Shown piece by piece: positions 2,882-63,754 of a stretch of 64,000 nt of DNA; positions within the stretch are counted from its first letter, which is position 1, and each line of letters begins with the position of its first letter. The DNA comes from Candidatus Saccharimonadota bacterium. Lineage in GTDB: Bacteria; Patescibacteriota; Saccharimonadia; Saccharimonadales; Saccharimonadaceae. The stretch is from contig JAPLYU010000001.1 of the NCBI GenBank assembly GCA_026395405.1, forward strand, positions 250,865 to 314,864. Reading direction: 5' to 3'. A program made the position numbers and the translations under genes. The notes beneath the pieces are model-generated. The model was not told the origin of the DNA and searched no databases. It worked only from the letters and a program-made list of their open reading frames with translations.

Positions 2882-3736
2882 ATGAGCGAAGACGTAAAAG
2901 AAGACACGAAAAAGTATTACGATACAACTCAGATTTCGTACAATCTGCTGTGGATGAACAAAAAAAATCTGGCAATGCATTACGGGTTTTGGGGTAAAGG
3001 TATAAAAACACTTCACGAAGCATTGTTAAATCAAAACAAAGAAACAGCCGAAGCGCTAGAAATTAAAAAAGACGATAGAGTGCTTGATGCAGGGTGCGGT
3101 GTAGGCGGTTCTGCTATTTGGGTAGCGGAAAATTACGGTGCAAAGGTGACCGGGATTACTATTGTTGAAAAACAGATAAAACAGGCTACTAAAAATGCAA
3201 AAAAAAGGGACGTGGACCACCTTGTCGATTTCAAGTTAATGGACTATTGCAACACAGATTTCCCAAATGATTCATTTGATAAAATTTACGCTATGGAAAG
3301 TATGTGTTATGCAAAAAGTAAGGCAGTTTTCGTAAAAGAAATGTACAGAATATTAAAACCAGGCGGCTGCTTGACAATATCAGACGCCTTTCTGGATGAC
3401 AAAACCATTCAAAAATCAGACGAGTTAATGCTGAATGATTGGATGGTTGGCTGGGCTGTGCCGAACGTATCAAAAATTGAAAATTTTCACGATGATTTAT
3501 GCCGGGCTGGGTTTAAGGGGATAAATGATAAAAATGTTAATGACCAGATTATTCCCTCTGCAAAGCGTATAAACAAGATTGGGCGAGTGTTCTATCCATT
3601 TGATTGGACCTGCAATATGCTCGGAATTGTCTCGAACACTACATTTAAAAGCACAATAGCAACTGTTGTTCAACTTCATTTGTTTTCTGAAATGATTATG
3701 CAGTATCATTTAATTAAAGCTAGAAAACCGGAGTAA
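2882..3736 (+). CDS. class I SAM-dependent methyltransferase (type 11, sterol/tocopherol/prenyl C-methyltransferase-like)
   Basis: SAM motif I VLDAGCGVGGSAIW plus post-I and motif II/III (DKIYAMES, LKPGG). I chose the ATG at 2882 (MSEDVKE), just after the upstream stop, instead of the overlapping 2837 start in the ORF track. Confidence 0.8.
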   Translation: MSEDVKEDTKKYYDTTQISYNLLWMNKKNLAMHYGFWGKGIKTLHEALLNQNKETAEALEIKKDDRVLDAGCGVGGSAIWVAENYGAKVTGITIVEKQIKQATKNAKKRDVDHLVDFKLMDYCNTDFPNDSFDKIYAMESMCYAKSKAVFVKEMYRILKPGGCLTISDAFLDDKTIQKSDELMLNDWMVGWAVPNVSKIENFHDDLCRAGFKGINDKNVNDQIIPSAKRINKIGRVFYPFDWTCNMLGIVSNTTFKSTIATVVQLHLFSEMIMQYHLIKARKPE

Positions 3737-37958: not shown

Positions 37959-39041
37959 ATGAAAAAATTAAACCTTCACCATAAAAATTCAAAACGGTCA
38001 TCGGGTTTTACTATCCTAGAATTGATTATTGTAATAGTAATAATTGGTATTCTGGCGGCGGTGGTGATTGCTACATATATTGGTACCGTGCCGAGTGCAC
38101 GCGATGTAGGCGTCCAGTCGGATGTCGACACTATGGATGGACTCCAAACAAATTTCGGTACGAAAAACAATGTTTCCGGCAAGGTGTATTACGGCAGTGG
38201 CTATGACGCCTCCTTGGACTTTCAACCAAGTAGTGGCAACATTATAGACGTGGTCATCAATTCAACTGACTATTGCATTCGTGGATATAACCCAGCCGGG
38301 ACGAAAAATTCGATAACTAACTCATATATTAAAGAGTCGACGTCCGGTGTTTGCGGGATTCTTAGTCCTTCTGCAGCTGCTTACGCAGGCACACCGATTA
38401 AATTACCAGGCGATATCGCAGGATTAAAATTATGGTTGGATGCATCACAGATTACAGGAAAAAATAATAATGATACATTATCAACATGGTCTGATCTTAG
38501 CGGTAGTGGCAATAGTCTCACTCAAGGGACGGTAAGTAATTATCCAGTCTATAAGACGAATATCGTCAAAGGAAAGCCTGCGGTACATTTTGCCGCCGCA
38601 AGTGCGCAAACTATGACAGTTGCTACTAATTTCACAGCGCCAGTCACTGTAATTTACGTAGGTCGTCAATCGGGTGGCACTAACGGTCGTATGCTTTCTG
38701 GGATAAACAATAACTGGCTGTTGGGGTTTTGGGGTGCGTCAAGATCACAGGCGTATTTTGAGGGCTGGGTCTCACCGGTCGGTACACCCGGATCGGATAC
38801 AAATTGGCATATGTACAGTGCTGTAATAACCGGGGCTGGGACTAACACGAAAGTATACGCAGACAGGACTCTAGTTGGTAGCAACCAGGGCGGTTTACAA
38901 GGTCCAAACGGATTAACTCTGATGGGTGAGTACGGTGAAAATTCGGACGGAGATATTACTGAAGTTATCATATACAATTCAGCCATATCTGATGTCAATA
39001 GATCTGCCATTGAAGATTATCTGTCCAATAAGTATTTCTAG
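37959..39041 (+). CDS. type IV pilin-like protein fused to a LamG-like lectin domain
   Basis: Class III signal RSSG/FTILELIIVIVIIGILAAV. C-terminal LKLWLDAS...WSDLSGSGNSLTQ...YSAVITG...GDITEVIIYNSAISDVNRSAIEDYL. Confidence 0.8.
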   Translation: MKKLNLHHKNSKRSSGFTILELIIVIVIIGILAAVVIATYIGTVPSARDVGVQSDVDTMDGLQTNFGTKNNVSGKVYYGSGYDASLDFQPSSGNIIDVVINSTDYCIRGYNPAGTKNSITNSYIKESTSGVCGILSPSAAAYAGTPIKLPGDIAGLKLWLDASQITGKNNNDTLSTWSDLSGSGNSLTQGTVSNYPVYKTNIVKGKPAVHFAAASAQTMTVATNFTAPVTVIYVGRQSGGTNGRMLSGINNNWLLGFWGASRSQAYFEGWVSPVGTPGSDTNWHMYSAVITGAGTNTKVYADRTLVGSNQGGLQGPNGLTLMGEYGENSDGDITEVIIYNSAISDVNRSAIEDYLSNKYF

Positions 39042-49236: not shown

Positions 49237-52002
49237 ATGTTCAGTTGTGGGAATAAACCAAAAGATCAAAAGAAATTGCTGTTTAGTTCAGCCTTTACTT
49301 TAATTGAACTTATAGTGGTTGTCACAATCATAGCCATTTTAGCGACAATCGGTGTTGTCGGGTACAATAGTTGGCGGCAAGCCACCGCAACAGCACAGTT
49401 GAAAAGCGATTTAAATAGCGTCGCAACTGCAATGGAAGACAACCGTAACTTTAACAATAAATATCCCGCTACAATTCCGTCAACCTTTAACCCAACCACC
49501 GGCGTAACCCTTAGTGGTGGTAGTGATGATGGCGGTTTGACATTTTGTGTTAGCGCCGTAAATTCACAATTTCCAAGCCTTTCATTTCATATTGACTCAA
49601 CAAATAACGGACCACAACCGGGTGTTTGTGCGACCCAAAAACTATTAGCGACCTACGCGGGCACTGGTGGAACAGTAAGCCCTGGTGGTACGTATGCTTC
49701 CAATTCGGTGCAAACAATAACGGCCACACCAAGTCAATATTATCGTGGTCTGGGTAACAATACGAATGTCTGGACCGGTGATAGTGGGTGTGCAGGTGGT
49801 GGTAATATTCTAAGCCATACAATTACAATGGATACCAAAAAAGATTGCACTGCTAATTTCGAACCGATTCCAATAGTATGCGTTCCCTCCGCACCGACGG
49901 TAACGCATGCAACAGTAGCCGGGACAACGACTTTTTCATGGACTCCTGGTGTATGCGGTGGCGCCTCAACTAGATATCAATATCGATATACGATTTCACC
50001 ATCTGGCTTTGATTCCGGCTGGATATCCACCGCCTCGCCGTCTGCCGCCTTTACGACTACGACCGAAGGCCAAACCTACTCGTTGGATGTTCAAACGCAG
50101 TTCTATAACCCGGCTACAAGCACCGCCTGGGGCCCTACGGGAACAGATGGCTGGTTTTTTACACCAACCATCCCAGTAATTACCTGTACGACAGCCTCCA
50201 GTTCGTCGGTTAACTGCTCGTGGACTTCTAACCCATACGCCACTAACTATTCGATGGATCGTGCGACCAACTCTTCGTTTACCACCGGCTTAACCACAAT
50301 AACCCAGGCTGGAACGACCTATACTTCAACCGGACTAGCGCAGGGAACAACCTATTATTTCCGGAGTAAGACTAACCTTGCCGGCAGTTCTAGTGCGTAT
50401 TCGCCTTACGATACTGCGACGACGACTGTCGACATTTGTAACGTACCTGTTGATAATTATTCGACAGTTGGTGCAACTACAACTTGGACGTGGAGCGCAC
50501 CAACCTGTCCTCCGGGAACATCTGCTCGTTATCGCTACGACTATACCATTGCTCCAATAGGTTTTGACTCAGGTTGGACGTCAACCGCCTCAACATCTGT
50601 CGCCTTTACGACCTCGACCGAAGGCCAGACTTATTGCGTAGCTTTGCAAGCACAGGCTTACACGGGGTCTGCATCAAGCGCTTGGACAGCATCTGACACA
50701 GACTGTTACTTAAGAGGGATTCCAACCCCAACGATTACTGCCACAACTGCTTCTAGCACCTCGGTCAATGTGTCGTGGACTTCAGATGCGTATGCTACCA
50801 GCTATACCATGGATCGTGCGACCAACTCTTCGTTTACCACCGGCTTAACCACAATAACCCAGGCTGGAACTACCTATACTTCAACCGGACTCAACGAGGG
50901 AGTAACTTATTATTTCCGTGTAAATTCTAACCTTCCAGCTGGTCCAAGCGCAGACTCACCTTATGGTACTGCTACAACGACAATAACTACTCCGACGCCA
51001 AACCCACCAACAACTACCGATAACACTGTTGGGGCGACTACGACGTGGACGTTCTCTGCCGAGACCTGTGCCGGCGGCACAACCTTAGAATATCGATATG
51101 ACTACACTATCGTACCGCCACCACTCGGTTCTGGTGGATATGACTCTGGTTGGATGGCTACTTCTGCTTCGTCAGTGGCGTTTACAACTTCAACTGAAGG
51201 CAAGACATACAATGTAGTTGTTCAAGCAAGATGTTACACAGGCGCTACTACTAGTTCCTGGACATCATCCAGTGCAAATAACACATATTACCGCATCATT
51301 AACTACTATTTGACGTTAGCTGGATCGAACTGTACTTTTAGCCAGAGTCCGGGTATGGGTCCTTATCCTGAAGGCTCTGCTGCTACGATGACCTGCACTC
51401 CAACCGCAACAAACTATTTTGACCATTGGTCCGGTGATACCGGCTGTACAATAAATGGTGGTACGGATTACACCCATACAGCCAGTCACACAATAACGAT
51501 GGACTCAAATAAGTCATGTGTCGCCCTGAGTTCTCATTGGATATACGCAGACGTCGGGGGTCAGATAGGTGGAAAATATGTATGGTACAAAGATCTGTCT
51601 GCCGAATATGCGTATAAGGTAAATAATAACGCCGATAATAATACCTGGACCGTTATGGGGGGTGATTCAAGCCATCCAAATCAAAGGGTATTGAGGGACC
51701 CAAATACTGCTCCGGGGAATACCCTTGACTGGGCCTCGTGGTATCCGTCTCAATATCGTTGTAATAGTAGCCTTGGTGGCCGCGTGCCAAACAATGGTGA
51801 ATTGGCTGGTATTATTGCTAACAAAAGCTTGTTTAATCAAGATTACGGATTCGGTACCCTTGATGATTGGTATGGGTCATCAAATGAGGCAACTGATTAT
51901 GACACAACAATCAGCCCAGTCAGAAACCGAATCACTGATGATTATGGAGATAGAGGTAAAACTGGAACCGCCGCTATCAGATGTATCGCTGATAACGTGT
52001 AG
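49237..52002 (+). CDS. giant type IV pilin-like adhesin: pilin N-terminus, InlB-B-repeat-like module, FN3-like repeats, C-terminal DUF1566/Lcl-like domain
   Basis: Class III signal FSSA/FTLIELIVVVTIIAILATI. Repeated YRYDYTI.P.GFDSGW...TEGQTY and SW/NSSFTTGLTTITQAGTTYTSTGL..G.TYYFR (FN3-like) units. The C-terminus with ...CNSSLGGRVPNNGELAGI...WYGSSNEA is tentatively DUF1566-like. Confidence 0.8.
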   Translation: MFSCGNKPKDQKKLLFSSAFTLIELIVVVTIIAILATIGVVGYNSWRQATATAQLKSDLNSVATAMEDNRNFNNKYPATIPSTFNPTTGVTLSGGSDDGGLTFCVSAVNSQFPSLSFHIDSTNNGPQPGVCATQKLLATYAGTGGTVSPGGTYASNSVQTITATPSQYYRGLGNNTNVWTGDSGCAGGGNILSHTITMDTKKDCTANFEPIPIVCVPSAPTVTHATVAGTTTFSWTPGVCGGASTRYQYRYTISPSGFDSGWISTASPSAAFTTTTEGQTYSLDVQTQFYNPATSTAWGPTGTDGWFFTPTIPVITCTTASSSSVNCSWTSNPYATNYSMDRATNSSFTTGLTTITQAGTTYTSTGLAQGTTYYFRSKTNLAGSSSAYSPYDTATTTVDICNVPVDNYSTVGATTTWTWSAPTCPPGTSARYRYDYTIAPIGFDSGWTSTASTSVAFTTSTEGQTYCVALQAQAYTGSASSAWTASDTDCYLRGIPTPTITATTASSTSVNVSWTSDAYATSYTMDRATNSSFTTGLTTITQAGTTYTSTGLNEGVTYYFRVNSNLPAGPSADSPYGTATTTITTPTPNPPTTTDNTVGATTTWTFSAETCAGGTTLEYRYDYTIVPPPLGSGGYDSGWMATSASSVAFTTSTEGKTYNVVVQARCYTGATTSSWTSSSANNTYYRIINYYLTLAGSNCTFSQSPGMGPYPEGSAATMTCTPTATNYFDHWSGDTGCTINGGTDYTHTASHTITMDSNKSCVALSSHWIYADVGGQIGGKYVWYKDLSAEYAYKVNNNADNNTWTVMGGDSSHPNQRVLRDPNTAPGNTLDWASWYPSQYRCNSSLGGRVPNNGELAGIIANKSLFNQDYGFGTLDDWYGSSNEATDYDTTISPVRNRITDDYGDRGKTGTAAIRCIADNV

Positions 52003-52081: not shown

Positions 52082-54352
52082 ATGCGTGGTGATAAGGACA
52101 ATAAAGACATCAAAAAAAAGAAAGCGCTGTTTAGCTCGGCTTTTACTCTTGTTGAACTTATAGTGGTTGTGACTATAATCGTAATCCTAGCAACAATCGG
52201 AGTTGTTGGGTATAACAGCTGGCGACAAGCCACTGCATCAGCACAACTGAAAAGTGATTTGAATACCGTTGCTACGGCTATGGAAAACTACCGTAACTTT
52301 AATAACGGATATCCAAATACAGTTCCATCATCCTTCAATCCAAGTAGTGGGGTAACTCTTAGCGGTGGTAGTGATGATGGTGGAGTGACATTTTGTATTA
52401 CCGCGGTCAATTCTCAATTCCCGGGCCTTTCATACCACATAGACTCAACAAACAATGGGCCTCAATCTGGCGTATGTGTATCACAAAAATTATTGGCGAC
52501 TTTTGCGGGCACTGGCGGTACAGTTAGTGCTGGTGGTTCATACGCAACTAACTCTGTCCAGACGATAACGGCTACGCCTAATACAAACTATTCATTTAGT
52601 AGTTGGACTGGTGATACTGGTTGTTCAGGTACTGCCAGCCACACAATCACAATGGACGCGAATAAAACTTGTACAGCGAATTTTGTAACCTGCACGTTAA
52701 CGTTAATCGCAGGTAGTGGCGGGACCATTACTGGAGGTGGCAATAATGTTTGTGGTACGACCCCACCAATTACAAGCACCCCTAGTACATACTACTCATT
52801 TACTAGTTGGACCGGTAGTACCGGTTGCTCTGGCACTGCCACTCATAACATCACTATGGATACAAATAAAACATGTACCGCGAACTTCTCGCCAACGGCA
52901 ATTGCCGCGCCATCGGCTCCAATCGTCACACCGGTAACTGTCACTGATACTACAACCTATTCATGGGGTGCAGCCTCGTGTCCGGGGAATACAGCCAGGT
53001 ATCAATATGACTATACAATTTCACCTGCAGGTTACGATTCTGGCTGGACGGCAACTGCATCAACTTCCGTTGCCTTTACAACCACAACTGAAGGCCAAAC
53101 TTACACTGTAGCCGTTCAAGCCCAATGTTATAACGCGGCGACAAGTAGTCCTTGGAGTTCATCGGGATCGGGCAGTTATTTACGTCCTATAACTTATCAA
53201 ACTTTGACATTAACTCCTGGAACTGGCGGTACTGTCAGCGGTGGAGGATCGTTCGCTACTGGTTCGTCTCCAACAATGACATCTACTCCTAATGCGAACT
53301 ATACATTTACCAGTTGGACCGGTAGTACCGGTTGTAGCGGTACACAAGTTCATACGATAACAATGGACGCAGCAAAGTCCTGTACGGCGAACTTTACGGC
53401 AACAGGTATCGCTACACCGGCAAATCCTATAGTAACGCATGCGACGGTTGGGGCTACAACAACGTTTTCATGGGGCGCAGCCTCGTGTCCGGGTAATTCA
53501 GCCAGATATCAATATGATTATACATATAACACCACGCCAACTCCTTTCGATTCCGGTTGGACAGCAACTGCATTGACATCGTTTGCACCTACAACTTCAA
53601 CCGGACCACTAACATATAGTTTGGCGGTACAAGCTCAATGTTATAACGGCGGCAACCAAAGCGCTTGGAGTGGCAGCGGAACAGATAGCTATCTAAGGCC
53701 TGGTGGTACCGGAGGAACAATTACATATTCAGGTGGTAGAACAATACATACATTTACAAGTAGTGGATCACTCGTGATTACAGGCGGGCCATTGTCTGGT
53801 GGTACCGTACTTATTGTCGCTGGTGGTGTTGGTGGTGCAGGTGGTGTTCAGGGGGGGCCGGCTGGGTCCGGCGGTGCCGGCGGAAAAGTCACAGCCCTCA
53901 GCAGTCAAAGTTTTAATGGGACCACTACGGTCACTGTCGGCGCTGCCGGTGCCGCAAGTGTGTTTGGCGGTACGACATCTAGTGGCACCGGAGCAACCGG
54001 TGGTACACCGAATGGCGAGGGAGCCAATGGCCTCCCGGGCGCAGCAGGTACTTCGTCAAGTATTAGCGGTTCGTCGATTTATTACGGCGGCGGTGGTGGT
54101 TCTGGCGCTTTTGTTGGTTATCCCGTTCACAGTATACATTTTTACGGTGGGGCTGGTGGCTCCGGAGGCGGTGGCACCGGGGGAGATGCATATTATGACG
54201 CCGTTGGGGGATGGAGTTATGGCTTTGTGGGGGTTGATGGAGCGGCAAATACGGGCGGCGGCGGCGGTGGTGGTGGCACCGGTTATGACTCTCCTGAATC
54301 TGGCGGCAACGGCGGTAAGGGAATTGTGATAGTTTCATATCCAACGCCTTAA
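52082..54352 (+). CDS. giant type IV pilin-like adhesin: pilin N-terminus, 4x InlB-B-repeat-like modules, FN3-like units, C-terminal glycine-rich domain
   Basis: N-terminal about 150 aa nearly identical to the 49237 gene. Modules GTGGTVS.GG...ITATPN.NY.F.SWTG.TGCSG...HTITMD..K.CTANF occur 4 times. The last about 220 aa are Gly-rich and end in GGNGGKGIVIVSYP. Confidence 0.8.
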   Translation: MRGDKDNKDIKKKKALFSSAFTLVELIVVVTIIVILATIGVVGYNSWRQATASAQLKSDLNTVATAMENYRNFNNGYPNTVPSSFNPSSGVTLSGGSDDGGVTFCITAVNSQFPGLSYHIDSTNNGPQSGVCVSQKLLATFAGTGGTVSAGGSYATNSVQTITATPNTNYSFSSWTGDTGCSGTASHTITMDANKTCTANFVTCTLTLIAGSGGTITGGGNNVCGTTPPITSTPSTYYSFTSWTGSTGCSGTATHNITMDTNKTCTANFSPTAIAAPSAPIVTPVTVTDTTTYSWGAASCPGNTARYQYDYTISPAGYDSGWTATASTSVAFTTTTEGQTYTVAVQAQCYNAATSSPWSSSGSGSYLRPITYQTLTLTPGTGGTVSGGGSFATGSSPTMTSTPNANYTFTSWTGSTGCSGTQVHTITMDAAKSCTANFTATGIATPANPIVTHATVGATTTFSWGAASCPGNSARYQYDYTYNTTPTPFDSGWTATALTSFAPTTSTGPLTYSLAVQAQCYNGGNQSAWSGSGTDSYLRPGGTGGTITYSGGRTIHTFTSSGSLVITGGPLSGGTVLIVAGGVGGAGGVQGGPAGSGGAGGKVTALSSQSFNGTTTVTVGAAGAASVFGGTTSSGTGATGGTPNGEGANGLPGAAGTSSSISGSSIYYGGGGGSGAFVGYPVHSIHFYGGAGGSGGGGTGGDAYYDAVGGWSYGFVGVDGAANTGGGGGGGGTGYDSPESGGNGGKGIVIVSYPTP

Positions 54353-56994: not shown

Positions 56995-57071
56995 GGGCGC
57001 TTAGCTCAGTTGGCTAGAGCATCTCGTTTACACCGAGAGGGTCGGGGGTTCGAGCCCCTCAGCGCCCACCA
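56995..57071 (+). tRNA. tRNA-Val (anticodon UAC), CCA encoded
   Basis: Acceptor GGGCGCT/AGCGCCC. D loop agctcagttggctagagc. Anticodon loop ttTACac. T arm cgggg-gttcgag-cccct region. Discriminator A plus CCA. Confidence 0.9.
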
Positions 57072-57077
57072 AATAAA

Positions 57078-57106
57078 GAAACCAATCCTTGTGATTGGAT
57101 TTTTTA
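57078..57106 (+). terminator. intrinsic terminator after tRNA-Val
   Basis: ccaatc / gattgg stem (extendable) with loop cttgt, followed by a T6 run. Confidence 0.6.
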
Positions 57107-57127
57107 TTTGGTACGCCCCGAATGGAC

Positions 57128-57296
57128 TCGAAACCCCGACGCCAAAGGTTGGGGGTGAGAACTGCCCAGAATGGCAGTTCGCAAGGCGACTTTCCGATGC
57201 AAACTATGTTTGCAATCGTGAAATCGCGGGGTCGCGGAACGTGACCGAGCCCCCGCCTGTCTGTTCGACGGAACGGGCAGGCCTCAGCGCCCACCA
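57128..57296 (+). repeat. tRNA-linked conserved structured element, copy B, ending in an interrupted duplicate of the tRNA-Val 3' end
   Basis: Same module order as 10132-10304. It ends in cgagcccc, a 28-nt G-U hairpin, and cctcagcgcccacca (57282-57296), which copies tRNA-Val 57057-57071. Confidence 0.6.
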
Positions 57297-57341
57297 AGTA
57301 CGTTATTTATCTGAACGATTTATTAGTGTTAGAATTGTAGT

Positions 57342-57515
57342 ATGGATAAAACATCCGAGGAATCAATCCAGAAGCCAGAGTTGCCGGTTGTGGACCCCGA
57401 AAAAATACAACGACTATTGGCACGGGGCGCAATGATTCAAGAAGAGTTTCAAAAACTGCAACCATCACTAAGAAAATTAGACTTAGATGATACGGGTTTA
57501 ATTTTTCGCGATTAG
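57342..57515 (+). CDS. possible small ORF (57 aa), hypothetical
   Basis: ATG-initiated MDKTSEESIQKPELPVVDPEKIQRLLARGAMIQEEFQKLQPSLRKLDLDDTGLIFRD. It falls below the ORF-track cutoff and has no clear SD. Confidence 0.25.
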   Translation: MDKTSEESIQKPELPVVDPEKIQRLLARGAMIQEEFQKLQPSLRKLDLDDTGLIFRD

Positions 57516-57736
57516 TTTATTAGAAAACTAGCCTCATTGACGAACTACTACAATCATCGTAGAATAACAACTAACTTGTTGAACTGAAACAGCTCCAAGG
57601 TACATTGACAAGCAGACAAATTCACAAGGTGGGGCCTCTGTGCTGAACATTCAACGTGGGGGCCTCATTTTGTGATATCTAATGGAGCGAAAGATATAGG
57701 CCGTATATACCTATTGTCGAACCAGGAGGTAATGTC

Positions 57737-58111
57737 GTGTGTGACATAAGCAAACTTAACTATCTGCGGGAGACCCGAGCACGGAAGCGCCAACCGGGAG
57801 TTTCATACCCAGGGTTGGTTGTCACTGACGATCATCTCATCGCCGCTCTTGAGGCAGTTTTGAAAGAGCGGGAGCTGTGCGGCATCTGCGAGCATTACAG
57901 AAGCGAGCATAGTTACTGCCATCTGGCTGGTGACTTGCCGCGGAGGAATCCGGATGAGGATCCGAACGACTACGGATGGCCGGCATGGGTACAGGACCCC
58001 AATGTTGTTGTGACCGTTCAGCTTCCACAAGCCTTCGTTCGCAACTGCGACCACTGTCACTTTGTGACGTCAGCGTGGGAGCCGTGCCGCTCGCCCGTAT
58101 CTTCGACCTAG
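57737..58111 (+). CDS. hypothetical Cys/His-rich small protein (GC-rich, GTG start)
   Basis: AGGAGG lies 8 nt upstream of the GTG. 124 aa with CGICEHYRSEHSYCH and CDHCH clusters suggesting metal binding. Composition is unlike the host background. Confidence 0.55.
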   Translation: MCDISKLNYLRETRARKRQPGVSYPGLVVTDDHLIAALEAVLKERELCGICEHYRSEHSYCHLAGDLPRRNPDEDPNDYGWPAWVQDPNVVVTVQLPQAFVRNCDHCHFVTSAWEPCRSPVSST

Positions 58112-58187
58112 TCTAGCGCAAAGGTATAGGCAGTCCGGGTTGTATAACCGGCTGCCTTGAGGGTATGTGCCTCTGTCTGCTTGTCAT

Positions 58188-58242
58188 ATCGCTTTCATGA
58201 ATGTGCATTCATGCTGATGAGTCCTAAAGGACGAAAAGCGAT
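58188..58242 (+). ncRNA. type III hammerhead ribozyme motif
   Basis: AUCGCUU-U-[CAUGAAU GUGC AUUCAUG]-CUGAUGA-[GUCC UAAA GGAC]-GAA-AAGCGAU. All invariant core nucleotides are present, with three Watson-Crick stems of 7, 4 and 7 bp. Confidence 0.8.
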
Positions 58243-58277
58243 TATTCTGGATAGACGTATTCATGTAGTCGTGAATT

Positions 58278-58347
58278 CGAGGGGTCGCCAAAGATGACCG
58301 AGCCCCCGCCTGTCTGTTCGACGGAACGGGCAGGCCTCAGCGCCCCC
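58278..58347 (+). repeat. third copy of the GGGGTCGC...tRNA-Val-3'-end module (right boundary of the 1-kb insert)
   Basis: cgaggggtcgccaaaga, then the 51-nt exact repeat including the G-U hairpin, then cctcagcgccccc. Confidence 0.65.
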
Positions 58348-58386
58348 TTAATTCCCCTAATGTTAATCAAATGCTATACTCAATTC

Positions 58387-59598
58387 ATGAAAGTTGCTAT
58401 TAGGAACAGATCATCAGGCTTTACCATCGTCGAACTCCTAGTGGTAATAGTCGTCATCGGTATCCTGGCAGCCATTACCATCGTCTCTTATGCTAATATC
58501 TCTCAAAAAGCCGTCGCCACTTCAATAACATCAGACTTAGACAGCGCCTCTAGACAATTAAAATTGTATCAAATTGACCACGGTACTTATCCAGCATTAC
58601 CACTAACTGTCTCCGGAAATAAATACTGTCCATCTGATGATAATCGGTACTGCTTTAAGGCCAGCCCCGGTAATACTTTTACCTACACTAACGTCGCTCC
58701 ATCAACCTTTAATCTAAGAAACGAAAATAGTAGTATCAGCTACTCAACCACCAATAACTCTCAGCCCACAATCTCTAATGTAACTAATTCCTCAAATACC
58801 TGTCCAACCGGCTTTATCCCGGTTCCTGGCAGCGGTACGTATGACACCAATGACTTTTGCGTCATGAAGTACGAAGCCAGTCAGGTCGGTGTCACAACTA
58901 CGCCAATCAGTCAGTCCGGATCTCTTCCTTGGGTAAATATCTCTCAAACCACAGCCATCACCAATAGCGCCAACGTCGCCGGTTGCACCGGCTGTCATCT
59001 GATAACTGAGGCCGAATGGCTGACTCTTACTCAAAATGTTCTTAGTGTTGCTAGCAACTGGGATGATGGGTCTGGTGGCCATACCGTTGGTGTTGGATAC
59101 ATTTACTCCGGCCACAACGACAACGTCCCCGCCAATGCCCTAACAGCTGATCCGAGTGATGCTAATGGCTACGTCGGTACCGGTAATGTCGCCCCGTCAA
59201 GCCAGAAACGTACTCTAGCCTTATCTAACGGTGAAGTCATTTGGGATTTTGCTGGTAATGTCTATGAATGGACTACTGGTACCATTGGTAGTGGTCAACA
59301 ACCAGGCCTAACTGGCGAAGTAGCCTACGCCTGGAAACAATGGAATAACGGTTCACTACTGCAAAATGGCTTTCCAGCTAGTGCTATGCCGGCTTATACT
59401 GGGATACCTGGTGCCAGTGGCTGGAGTTCGGCTCAAAGTATTGGCCAAATGTATACAAATTATGGTGATGCTTCGGTGCGGGGCTTCTTACGTAGTGGCC
59501 ATTATAACAATCTTGGTAACGCTGGGGTTTTCGCTTTGAATTTGAACTATATCCCCAGTGGCACGAACACGTTTATCGGCTTTCGGGTTTCCCGGTGA
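58387..59598 (+). CDS. type IV pilin-like protein fused to an FGE-sulfatase (SUMF1/DUF323)-like domain
   Basis: Class III signal RSSG/FTIVELLVVIVVIGILAAI. The C-terminus has DFCVMKYEAS, PWVNIS, AEWLTL, DFAGNVYEWT and FIGFRVSR, resembling the FGE-sulfatase fold signature. Start set at the ATG at 58387, because the 31-codon upstream extension lies in the repeat. Confidence 0.75.
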   Translation: MKVAIRNRSSGFTIVELLVVIVVIGILAAITIVSYANISQKAVATSITSDLDSASRQLKLYQIDHGTYPALPLTVSGNKYCPSDDNRYCFKASPGNTFTYTNVAPSTFNLRNENSSISYSTTNNSQPTISNVTNSSNTCPTGFIPVPGSGTYDTNDFCVMKYEASQVGVTTTPISQSGSLPWVNISQTTAITNSANVAGCTGCHLITEAEWLTLTQNVLSVASNWDDGSGGHTVGVGYIYSGHNDNVPANALTADPSDANGYVGTGNVAPSSQKRTLALSNGEVIWDFAGNVYEWTTGTIGSGQQPGLTGEVAYAWKQWNNGSLLQNGFPASAMPAYTGIPGASGWSSAQSIGQMYTNYGDASVRGFLRSGHYNNLGNAGVFALNLNYIPSGTNTFIGFRVSR

Positions 59599-59630
59599 TA
59601 TAACCACATCAACTTAATCTTCTTAAGCTT

Positions 59631-59659
59631 GATAATCTCCAGTTTTCTGCTATAATTCA
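59631..59659 (+). promoter_or_regulatory. putative promoter of typA
   Basis: TTGATA, then a 17-nt spacer, then TATAAT about 30 nt upstream of the ATG. Confidence 0.45.
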
Positions 59660-59691
59660 AGATAAGGAACCCGCCTGGCGGGTATATTTTT

Positions 59692-62560: not shown

Positions 62561-63754
62561 ATGACAAAGAGAAAATTACGAGTTGGACTGATAAGTTCCT
62601 ACGTACCCATGAAATGCGGTATCGCAACGCATAGCCGCGATTTATTAGAGGCAATGCTTGGTCATAGTAATTTTGATTGGCGACTTGTTGCCGCCGAAGA
62701 CACCTTGGGGCCATATAATTTTAACGACAAAGAAATTGCCACATTAGATAAAAGCAATAAAAAATCATACGAAGCTGCCGCAGAGGCTATGAATAAATGG
62801 CAGCCGGACGTCGTACTATTGGCGCACGAATTCGGTTTGTATGGCGGAACAACCAAAGACATACAGCATAATGATAAAAACCTGCATGTTATCACGGGCG
62901 ACTATATCCTTACTCTCATCGATAAACTAAAAGCTCCGATTATTACAACCCTTCATACAATTATCCCAGATCCCGATAAATTACGTCGTGAAGTGATGCG
63001 TGCAATCAGTAAACGGTCATCCAAACTTGTATCAATGACAGACGACGGTCGCAGTACCCTAGACTTTTTTTATGGGATAAAACCAGCCAAGGTGGCAGTT
63101 ATACCGCACGGCGTTCCACAGCCGGTTCAGCGGGACAAAAAACTTGTATTAAAAGATCTTAAACTTGATACAAACAAATTCTACCTTTTAGTTACTGGAT
63201 TAATCGGACCGAATAAGGGGATAGAATTAATCATCAAGGCCTTGCCCGATATTATTAAAAAACATTCCGAGGTTATGTTGTTGGTCGTTGGTCAAACGCA
63301 CCCGGTAATTTTAGAAGAAGTTGGTGAGGTATATCGAGAAGGTTTGATAAAACTAGCGACAGAACTGGGAGTTTGTGACCATATACAATTTGTGAATGAA
63401 TATTTGCCTACGGACAAGCTGGTTGATTATTTGACGATTGCCGATGTTTATTTGACGATTCACAGTGATCCTGAACAAGCTGCGTCTGGTACTTTGGCAT
63501 ACGCCTTGGGTTGCGGACTGGCTTCAATCTCTACTCCCTATCGTTATGCCAAGGAGGTTTTGGCCGATGGCCGAGGATTTCTAGTGCCATTTAACGATCC
63601 TTTGGCGATTGCGAAACAGGTTGATACATTGATTGAAAACAAGGCTCTTCTGAATGAAACTAGGGAAAAAGCCATGCTATTTGGATGTCCAATGAGCTGG
63701 GAGAAAGTCGGGGATGAGTATATGAAATTAGTTGAGGCAATTTTACAGGAGTAA
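62561..63754 (+). CDS. glycosyltransferase family 4 (GT-B, group 1)
   Basis: N-terminal CGIATHSRDL and a C-terminal E..G..L.EA-type region (SGTLAYALGCGLASIST). Confidence 0.75.
   Translation: MTKRKLRVGLISSYVPMKCGIATHSRDLLEAMLGHSNFDWRLVAAEDTLGPYNFNDKEIATLDKSNKKSYEAAAEAMNKWQPDVVLLAHEFGLYGGTTKDIQHNDKNLHVITGDYILTLIDKLKAPIITTLHTIIPDPDKLRREVMRAISKRSSKLVSMTDDGRSTLDFFYGIKPAKVAVIPHGVPQPVQRDKKLVLKDLKLDTNKFYLLVTGLIGPNKGIELIIKALPDIIKKHSEVMLLVVGQTHPVILEEVGEVYREGLIKLATELGVCDHIQFVNEYLPTDKLVDYLTIADVYLTIHSDPEQAASGTLAYALGCGLASISTPYRYAKEVLADGRGFLVPFNDPLAIAKQVDTLIENKALLNETREKAMLFGCPMSWEKVGDEYMKLVEAILQE

Follow-up and report, generated by a model that had tools for sequence, protein, structure and literature searches.

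In the mRNAs of hok and other type I toxins, a long-range helix between the 5′ and 3′ ends makes for a compact, stable molecule whose ribosome-binding site is occluded, and in RiboJ-type engineered insulators and 3′-end cassettes a hammerhead ribozyme is combined with a stable helix so that transcripts have defined ends and neighbouring units are uncoupled. Natural hammerheads are numerous too, with hundreds known from bacteria (PMC3088659). The roles of most of these are "largely elusive" (PMC6765202), and most RAGATH motifs are likewise without known function (PMC11061315). Here we describe a type III hammerhead on the plus strand of a 64,000-nt stretch of a Saccharibacteria chromosome (contig JAPLYU010000001.1, positions 250,865 to 314,864); this whole stretch is called the window below. 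The ribozyme lies between a Cys/His-rich open reading frame (ORF) of 124 amino acids (aa) and a pilin-like gene (Table 1). In our estimate, there is a probability of roughly 55% that it ends a promoter-to-ribozyme cassette, where it would form the 3′ end of a clamped mRNA and insulate the pilin-like gene from it.

How closely does the motif conform to a hammerhead? A preliminary description of the window, made from the letters alone, had laid out its sequence, core, stems, type III topology and cleavage site, and the plus strand reads exactly so. The core residues C3 U4 G5 A6 N7 G8 A9 and G12 A13 A14 are all present; the A15.1-U16.1 pair is A58236-U58194, the G10.1-C11.1 pair is G58221-C58232, and position 17 is U58195, not G. 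Stems I and II are closed by loops and stem III is open (7, 4 and 7 bp). The Rfam hammerhead model RF00008 aligns end to end with the motif (model positions 1-54; 39.7 bits against a curated gathering score of 48.5), with E = 1.3e-7 in a 201-nt search and 8.5e-7 in a 1351-nt search, or ~4e-5 when scaled to the whole window. Folded in isolation, the 55 nt adopt the claimed three-way junction as their minimum free energy (MFE) structure (-15.9 kcal/mol, z = -2.5, a stability matched by 4 of 200 shuffles), and a pattern made of the core plus stem II occurs once in the window and in none of 100 shuffles. As had been said before, there is no second hammerhead in the window according to the Rfam scan and to a model, R1, built from 39 relatives of the ribozyme without the window itself. 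Nor did Rfam return any other ribozyme or RNA family in 57050-58400 at E <= 5.

How widespread are ribozymes of this build? We scanned viral contigs for the pattern CTGATGAGTCC-N3-9-GGACGAAA, which recovered at least 120 loci; among the matches listed (130 sorted), 88 were type I and 28 were type III. The type III phage relatives share a common build, consisting of a 7-bp stem I with a 4-nt G-N-G-Y loop, a stem II of the form GUCC-NAAA-GGAC and a stem III of 3-8 bp. The combination of G-N-G-Y in loop 1 with N-A-A-A in loop 2 recurs across relatives that were picked without selection on loop 1, which suggests a loop-loop contact. A metagenome scan that additionally demanded an AU-GUGC-AU tip on stem I yielded 46 loci with the hammerhead architecture. 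The identical stem I, CAUGAAU-GUGC-AUUCAUG, is found in 7 of the metagenome loci together with stem III sequences that differ but whose two strands are complementary, and 3 of those 7 (L223, L231 and L237) share the UUU cleavage triplet as well. Altogether, 47 distinct relatives pass the stem filters, compared with an estimated ~0.09 expected by chance among ~180 pattern matches.

We next asked whether the stems covary. In a gap-free alignment of 39 distinct relatives, with the window left out, double changes occur at 12 of the 18 pairs (6/7 in stem I and 6/7 in stem III), and the covariation score is 0.689, against 0.19 for shuffles and no more than 0.10 when the partners are slid; the percentage of paired positions is not independent evidence in this set, as the relatives were pre-filtered for pairing. 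The covariation favours selection over decay. Judged from sequence, this is a hammerhead subfamily widespread in phages and bacteria—a 7-bp stem I capped by G-N-G-Y, a GUCC-NAAA-GGAC stem II and an open stem III—and the motif in the window is very probably a genuine type III hammerhead and a member of this natural subfamily. We found no hammerheads in 35 related Patescibacteria loci (551 kb), and tRNA genes do not regularly adjoin the type III hammerheads in the phage contigs examined.

The preliminary description held that two results together would speak against a hammerhead: a covariance-model score under the gathering score and a transcript that fails to cleave. The first of the two is what we found, on a match that nonetheless spans the full length of the model. 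For this subfamily, however, the cut-off appears to be uninformative and to leave out the group as a whole, because all seven of the clear relatives checked fall under it as well (24-45.7 bits with RF00008). Subfamily members like those checked would consequently go unlisted in threshold-based genome annotation, and the default whole-window Rfam scan omits the present ribozyme because its score is under the gathering score.

Among the relatives, one contig (L211) carries two near-identical type III hammerheads (1962-2016 and 2745-2799), which stand 783 nt apart on either side of one 159-aa ORF and are each preceded by the same CCAUCAUCCAUCC; such a two-ribozyme layout could give ligatable ends. 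In four phage contigs (L089, L205, L216 and L250) a near-copy of the GC hairpin that abuts the hammerhead lies ~1.1 kb upstream of it, a pattern that points to repeated hairpin-plus-ribozyme punctuation of phage transcripts. In one of the four, L089, there is in addition a match to the type I hammerhead below threshold, at 3101-3150.

What does the ribozyme belong to? BLAST of the island against the fetched loci revealed similarity that extends upstream of the hammerhead into the right arm of an inverted repeat, with a second match at the left arm in L233. The layout is shared by the window and four further distinct loci (L233, L236 = L225, L235 and L251), in all of which GUCUGCUUGUCA directly precedes the ribozyme. 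The distance from the 5′ arm, UUGACAAGCAGAC, to the ribozyme is 583 nt in the window, 686 nt in L233, 620 nt in L236/L225, 586 nt in L235 and 396 nt in L251. In each locus the arms enclose a single ORF that has a Shine-Dalgarno (SD) sequence, and the encoded proteins are unrelated (124, ~88-101, ~131, 116 and 71 aa, in the same order of loci) and belong to no Pfam or PADLOC family. Both promoter hexamers align in all five homologous loci, and the similarity ends upstream of the -35 hexamer. The 5′ arm is followed by a leader hairpin common to the cassette loci, which has a shared base and a covarying tip (Table 1). Past the ribozyme, by contrast with these upstream parts, there is no sequence common to the loci, and their flanks are unrelated.

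The arms themselves covary among loci. Two compensatory pair changes were found (A-U to G-C, G-C to A-U in L251), and two further changes produce G-U, which pairs in the sense RNA only. In an analogue, L249, the 24-nt arms are entirely different but the order of parts is kept: a promoter, a small hairpin, the 5′ arm, a hairpin, a 178-aa ORF, a local hairpin, the 3′ arm and the ribozyme. L251 comes from a Patescibacteria chromosome (its CysS is 72-75% identical to named Patescibacteria proteins), where the cassette stands between recR and a DHH-family gene; in the relative L256 these two genes are 42 nt apart, and in further relatives other small genes lie between them. A further locus, L232, is also Saccharibacteria-like. 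Two loci keep a 3′-arm-like sequence with no 5′ arm that could be found, the contig ending too soon in one (L210) and the sequence having diverged in the other (L226).

These comparisons change how the inverted repeat is to be read. It had been reported as a 13-nt repeat ending 2 nt before the ribozyme and was taken as a boundary of foreign DNA. The repeat is real (57606-57618 with 58174-58186), and the gap is a single nucleotide (58187). Rather than a boundary, it appears as a conserved long-range pairing inside the cassette, and because the conserved unit runs from promoter to ribozyme with the repeats inside it, the repeats are unlikely to be transposon ends. On this comparative evidence, the cassette (~57537-58242) is a self-contained single-gene unit consisting of a promoter, a structured leader with the 5′ arm, a small ORF, the 3′ arm and the hammerhead. 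The cargo ORF in the window matches only itself among 5.8 billion proteins and has no Pfam, PHROGs or PADLOC family (AlphaFold2 predicted local distance difference test, pLDDT, 39.6). For a 57-aa ORF close by, its own sequence is the sole protein match, and neither of these two small ORFs matches a family in Pfam or PHROGs. Because each matches only itself, no protein-based comparison of the locus is possible.

Are the cassette RNAs unusually structured? We folded them from the predicted start to the cleavage site (57572-58195 in the window) and compared them with dinucleotide shuffles. The six cassette RNAs have z-scores of -5.5, -5.6, -5.8, -6.0, -9.6 and -5.7, whereas the bodies of the cassette ORFs range from -2.3 to +0.8 and control coding regions from -3.6 to +0.8. 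The long-range helix between the 5′ and 3′ arms is present in both the MFE and the centroid structures of the window and L233 RNAs. Structure also extends to the wider family: across 47 distinct type III relatives, the 60 nt just before the ribozyme fold at an average of -17.3 kcal/mol, against -10.9 for 60-mers drawn at random from these loci (p = 1e-4), while the 60 nt downstream, at -7.4 kcal/mol, are less structured than random (p = 6e-6). In the examples read, the relatives' upstream hairpin abuts the ribozyme without a U-tract. Furthermore, the four loci with the weakest local upstream hairpin are exactly the four with long-range arms. In these predicted folds, a stable helix immediately 5′ of the ribozyme, whether local or long-range, looks like a family trait.

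The leader has a described counterpart. Full-model matches to RAGATH-10 (RF03147) occur in the leaders of L233 (35.9 bits, E = 8e-4) and L236/L225 (32.7 bits, E = 5e-3), both of them sub-threshold (gathering score 41.2 bits). The family is recognized by a closing helix, CCUCAUCU / GGAUGAGG, around three hairpins; in the relatives, CCUCAUCU pairs with AGAUGAGG, which contains the SD. The CCUCAUCUUGU strand takes part in the upstream hairpin too, as its 3′ side, so that the two leader folds are mutually exclusive. In the window, the CCUCAUYUUGUG strand is retained, and of the closing helix there is only a short CCUC/GAGG pairing, made with the window's AGGAGG; likewise, the CCUCAU of its leader hairpin 3′ strand is complementary to the SD of the cargo ORF, and the extended 5′ arm overlaps the base of that hairpin. 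In the cassette, the motif is a 5′ untranslated region (UTR) with a ribosome-binding site, whereas Rfam files RAGATH-10 as a small RNA (sRNA); this setting suggests that RAGATH-10 acts in cis, as a leader, and not as an sRNA. The leader pattern had no matches in viral contigs, and a RAGATH-10-like pattern had three, none with a hammerhead; the one that was read (L262) is phage coding sequence.

How might these parts work together? Transcription would start near 57572, a predicted position, and continue through the hammerhead, which would fold and cut after U58195. The cargo mRNA would be released with a 2′,3′-cyclic phosphate end 9 nt past the 3′ arm, and pairing of this arm with the 5′ leader arm would give an mRNA that is clamped end to end and unusually structured. 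With no terminator needed, the cut would thereby give the transcript a defined 3′ end protected by a helix, and it would uncouple the cassette promoter from the downstream pilin-like gene, and the clamp may bias the SD-sequestering switch in the leader. This mechanism makes specific the tentative idea in the literature of "mRNA processing, different stabilities" (PMC3088659; PMC6765202 section 13). With a hammerhead fixed at the 3′ end of a unit that has complementary ends and varying cargo, the vague notion of "mRNA processing" becomes experimentally specific. If the cassette is ordinary accessory DNA, the hammerhead is merely one more bacterial type III hammerhead.

A broader proposal, which we put forward only tentatively and regard as rather doubtful, is that Patescibacteria, the Saccharibacteria genome of the window among them, carry undescribed portable single-gene cassettes in which a RAGATH-10-type leader, a covarying clamp and a hammerhead act together, the ribozyme completing the clamp and the clamp setting mRNA lifetime and toggling the SD switch. 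If true, it would provide a concrete function for both bacterial hammerheads and RAGATH-10. The ribozyme itself is of a known kind, and the cassette may be new: its architecture was not found in the searchable literature, which also holds no joint mention of hammerheads and Saccharibacteria, and papers that mention hammerheads together with Patescibacteria concern, by title and abstract, unrelated topics.

Several observations weigh against a hammerhead that ends and insulates a clamped mRNA. The score of the motif lies under the curated cut-off of RF00008; UUU is a poor context for cleavage compared with GUC in minimal hammerheads; and stem II is short, at 4 bp. When 58112-58400 is folded, the MFE structure pairs the 5′ half of the hammerhead with the start region of the pilin-like gene and forms neither stem I nor stem III. 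Model R1 scores the window's motif at 74.5 bits, a figure with some circularity in it, since patterns derived from the window had served to fetch the relatives. The leader of the window has no RAGATH-10 match in 57050-58400 at E <= 5, and the class of cassettes is small, with five homologous loci and one analogue. In some relatives (L241 and L218), the ribozyme is directly followed by what looks to the eye like a terminator hairpin with a T-run, which does not fit well with the ribozyme as a substitute for a terminator. Complementarity of the arms alone, moreover, cannot tell an RNA helix from a DNA-level inverted repeat. Finally, the transcription start, the cleavage in the cell and the RNA ends are all predicted, and the effects on stability and translation are inferred.

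Table 1. Features of the hammerhead cassette and its surroundings. Positions are those of the window unless a contig is named.
Feature	Position	Strand	Sequence or remark
tRNA-Val(TAC)	56995-57071	+	conserved left border of the variable stretch
tRNA-Val terminator	57082-57105	+	
82-nt direct repeat, left copy	57211-57292	+	ends in tRNA-Val 3′-terminal sequence
Promoter-like site	57537-57565	+	TTGACG-17-TAGAAT; 10/12 consensus matches; left edge of cassette
5′ arm of predicted long-range helix	57606-57618 (extended 57606-57626)	+	UGACAAGCAGACA; in mRNA leader
Conserved leader hairpin	57622-57675	+	base ACAAGRUGRG / CUCAUYUUGU; 11 conserved bp and covarying tip
Cargo ORF, Cys/His-rich, 124 aa	57737-58111	+	AGGAGG 8 nt before GTG start
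Local 3′ UTR hairpin	58128-58156	+	GGCAGUCCGG...CCGGCUGCC; from predicted folds; upstream of 3′ arm
3′ arm of predicted long-range helix	58174-58186 (extended 58166-58186)	+	GUCUGCUUGUCA core; ends 1 nt before hammerhead
Type III hammerhead ribozyme	58188-58242	+	from sequence, RF00008 match, fold and covariation among relatives
Hammerhead stem III (open)	58188-58194 with 58236-58242	+	AUCGCUU with AAGCGAU; 7 bp
Hammerhead H17	58195	+	U; predicted cleavage between 58195 and 58196
Hammerhead stem I hairpin	58196-58213	+	CAUGAAU-GUGC-AUUCAUG; 7 bp, loop GUGC
Hammerhead core	58214-58220, 58233-58235	+	CUGAUGA, GAA
Hammerhead stem II hairpin	58221-58232	+	GUCC-UAAA-GGAC; 4 bp, loop UAAA
82-nt direct repeat, right copy	58264-58345	+	starts 22 nt after hammerhead
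Pilin-like gene	58387-59598	+	N-terminal methylation motif solid; FGE-sulfatase match weak
RAGATH-10 matches in 5′ leaders	L233 1084-1162; L236 522-599; L225 1923-2000		SD inside closing helix

Where in the chromosome does the cassette sit? In related genomes, the gene order is SBP gene, tRNA-Leu, tRNA-Val, typA, and in several of them typA follows ~100 nt after tRNA-Val. Here, an extra 2.6 kb (57072-59690), absent from the relatives, separates the two; it contains a conserved structured piece, an 82-nt repeat, the 57-aa ORF, the Cys/His ORF, the hammerhead, the second copy of the repeat and the pilin-like gene. GC content is 0.53-0.59 across the Cys/His ORF, compared with ~0.40 nearby. The earlier picture of a hammerhead in a GC-rich insert, co-oriented with both the ORF and the pilin-like gene, is borne out. 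The structured piece is a GC-rich stretch after the tRNA-Val terminator (57128-57200) that is ~80% conserved in the contig of the closest relative (L123 12092-12148); it includes an 8-bp hairpin, GAACUGCC...GGCAGUUC, and has no Rfam match.

Elsewhere in the window, the default Rfam scan lists three tRNAs and one lysM-TM7 RNA (RF03005, 35131-35268 on the plus strand), a Saccharibacteria (TM7) marker that scores 89.9 bits, well above its gathering score. The ORFs scanned with Pfam between 37959 and 63754 comprise housekeeping genes, pilin-like genes and glycan genes; the final one (62561-63754) was judged by eye only. Pilin-like or surface-protein genes are scattered among them (37959-39041, 49237-52002, 52082-54352 and 58387-59598); three of these four have the N-terminal methylation motif and two have InlB B-repeat (Flg_new_2) domains.

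Could the ribozyme serve the gene downstream rather than the one upstream? It would then process an operon, splitting a read-through transcript so that the pilin-like mRNA gains a 5′-OH, hairpin-capped leader with its own stability and translation rate, and the upstream ORF and the repeat would be incidental. All the parts are co-oriented, and the terminator scan found no terminator-like site on the plus strand between 57100 and 59669, in keeping with the earlier statement that the hammerhead would cut any read-through from the Cys/His ORF into the pilin-like gene. The processing of polycistronic transcripts is also a role suggested in the literature (PMC3088659; PMC6765202 section 13), and the unusually unstructured sequence downstream of the type III relatives resembles translation-initiation regions. 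However, each relative has different genes downstream and conservation stops at the ribozyme, whereas the conserved parts—arms, leader and promoter—all lie upstream.

The pilin-like gene, moreover, may have a start of its own. An extended -10-like TGCTATACT stands ~7 nt before its ATG, which suggests a leaderless transcript; the site was seen by eye, and the promoter scan did not report it. The link to this gene drawn in the preliminary description looks incidental, as ribozyme relatives adjoin unrelated genes, and the gene has no counterpart at the relatives' loci. Of its two proposed features, the N-terminal methylation motif is solid, but the FGE domain is weak (E = 0.0016, below the Pfam cut-off). 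An 11-nt perfect complement joins the 5′ half of the hammerhead (58192-58202) to the start-codon region of the pilin-like gene (58383-58393; pairing 58191-58202 in the MFE fold), and in read-through RNA it could, on that fold, slow the cleavage or cover the start codon. We regard the match to AUUCAUGAAAG as a probable coincidence, given that the sequence of stem I is fixed across the family and that the hammerhead would be transcribed ~140 nt earlier. Overall, we regard operon processing as unlikely, though less so than the explanations that follow.

A second question is whether the repeats act at the level of DNA, as recombination or transposition sites of a small, non-autonomous one-gene element whose enzyme is perhaps encoded elsewhere, with the hammerhead as a passenger; alternatively, the stretch would be a decaying phage or integrative remnant at tRNA-Val. 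Perfect 13-nt inverted repeats surround a GC-rich orphan ORF in a region absent from relatives, and bacterial hammerheads often lie near integrases and prophages (PMC3088659). In addition, two copies of an 82-nt direct repeat bound a unit of 1053 bp that encloses the 57-aa ORF and the hammerhead cassette. The copies are 90% identical, with the last 51 nt exact, lie 1053 bp apart and each hold a 12-bp hairpin. The 3′ end of tRNA-Val, CCTCAGCGCCC (ACCAA), is found at 57057 and again inside both copies, at 57282 and 58335, which suggests that the repeats may be remnants of old attachment sites; yet tRNA-Val keeps a terminator like that of the relatives, and no integrase was found nearby. The 82-nt repeat has no relatives in the viral and metagenome collections; two viral matches to its first hairpin were rejected as GC-rich coding sequence.

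Against a mobile element stands, above all, the position of the inverted repeats: the promoter and leader lie outside the left one and the hammerhead lies outside the right one, which is not the arrangement of the ends of a miniature inverted-repeat transposable element (MITE) or an insertion sequence (IS). By eye, there is no target-site duplication at the ends of the window's cassette or at its repeat arms, and the other loci have no flanking direct repeats. In the 20 kb upstream and the 4 kb downstream, we found neither an integrase or transposase nor a phage gene. Where the arms have changed to G-U, pairing is kept in the sense RNA only, and the stems of the hammerhead covary, favouring selection over decay. 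We regard a DNA-level element as improbable, more so than operon processing.

A circular, viroid-like RNA or retrozyme-like element, in which the 1053-bp unit or the clamped mRNA is processed by the hammerhead and ligated into a circle, is very improbable. The clamp would bring the 5′ and 3′ regions together, the unit measures ~1 kb, and the contig with two hammerheads around one ORF (L211) shows that such a layout occurs. The window, however, has a single hammerhead, so that the 5′ end would be a triphosphate rather than a ligatable 5′-OH, and the element is chromosomal DNA with a promoter. Two Logan contigs from SRR20698641 and SRR20698644, L001 (window 57242-58324) and L002 (window 57263-58324), are 100% identical to the window and hold the repeat-bounded unit only. 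L001 (1083 nt) has a 30-nt terminal self-overlap, which would fit a circle. Its start also coincides exactly with the edge of the 51-nt exact repeat, and the segment between the copies is exactly what L002 contains; branching of the assembly graph at a genomic repeat predicts both. We set this lead aside, as contig ends that coincide with an exact repeat probably reflect such branching and are not proof of a circle; an excised or amplified 1053-bp unit is the less probable reading of the two contigs.

That the motif is a functionless chance match to the hammerhead consensus, to which its score below the Rfam threshold and a 55-nt z of only -2.5 with 4 of 200 shuffles folding as well might point, is hardly credible in view of the scaled whole-window E of ~4e-5, the absence of the pattern from 100 shuffles and the near-identical ribozymes with covarying stem III in many unrelated contigs, which contradict it.

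How, then, does a hammerhead at the end of a clamped mRNA compare with described systems? The nearest are the bacterial and phage type III hammerheads (RF00008, clan CL00010; Perreault et al. 2011, PMC3088659), with which the window's ribozyme shares the core, the junction, the open stem III and an intergenic site between co-oriented genes. Published hammerheads, as here, are also tied to accessory DNA and flank single genes of varying identity (PMC3088659). In contrast to the published type III ribozymes, the one in the window lies under the gathering score (like its seven relatives) and has a UUU rather than a GUC triplet; its setting is a Saccharibacteria chromosome, where we found neither a prophage nor an integrase close by; and it comes with a conserved promoter, leader and predicted long-range clamp, a combination not found described in the literature searched.

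Retrozymes and viroid-like circular RNAs (PMC4918200, PMC7761336) resemble the window in their type III ribozyme and in a ~1-kb unit with direct repeats. They differ in that the window has a single hammerhead, outside the repeats, and a DNA promoter, with no reverse-transcription features seen and no solid evidence of a circle.

The likeness to hok is one of mechanism only and is drawn by analogy: in both, a closing helix between the 5′ and 3′ ends would be coupled to occlusion of the ribosome-binding site. The 3′ end of hok mRNA is trimmed by an exonuclease to activate it, whereas that of the cassette would be made by the hammerhead, and the cassette cargo proteins, at 71-178 aa, are mostly not toxin-like, unlike the product of hok. 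RiboJ, by a similar analogy, pairs a hammerhead with a helix, but it is synthetic and usually placed 5′ of a gene, whereas the natural hammerhead described here follows its gene on the 3′ side and is itself preceded by the helix.

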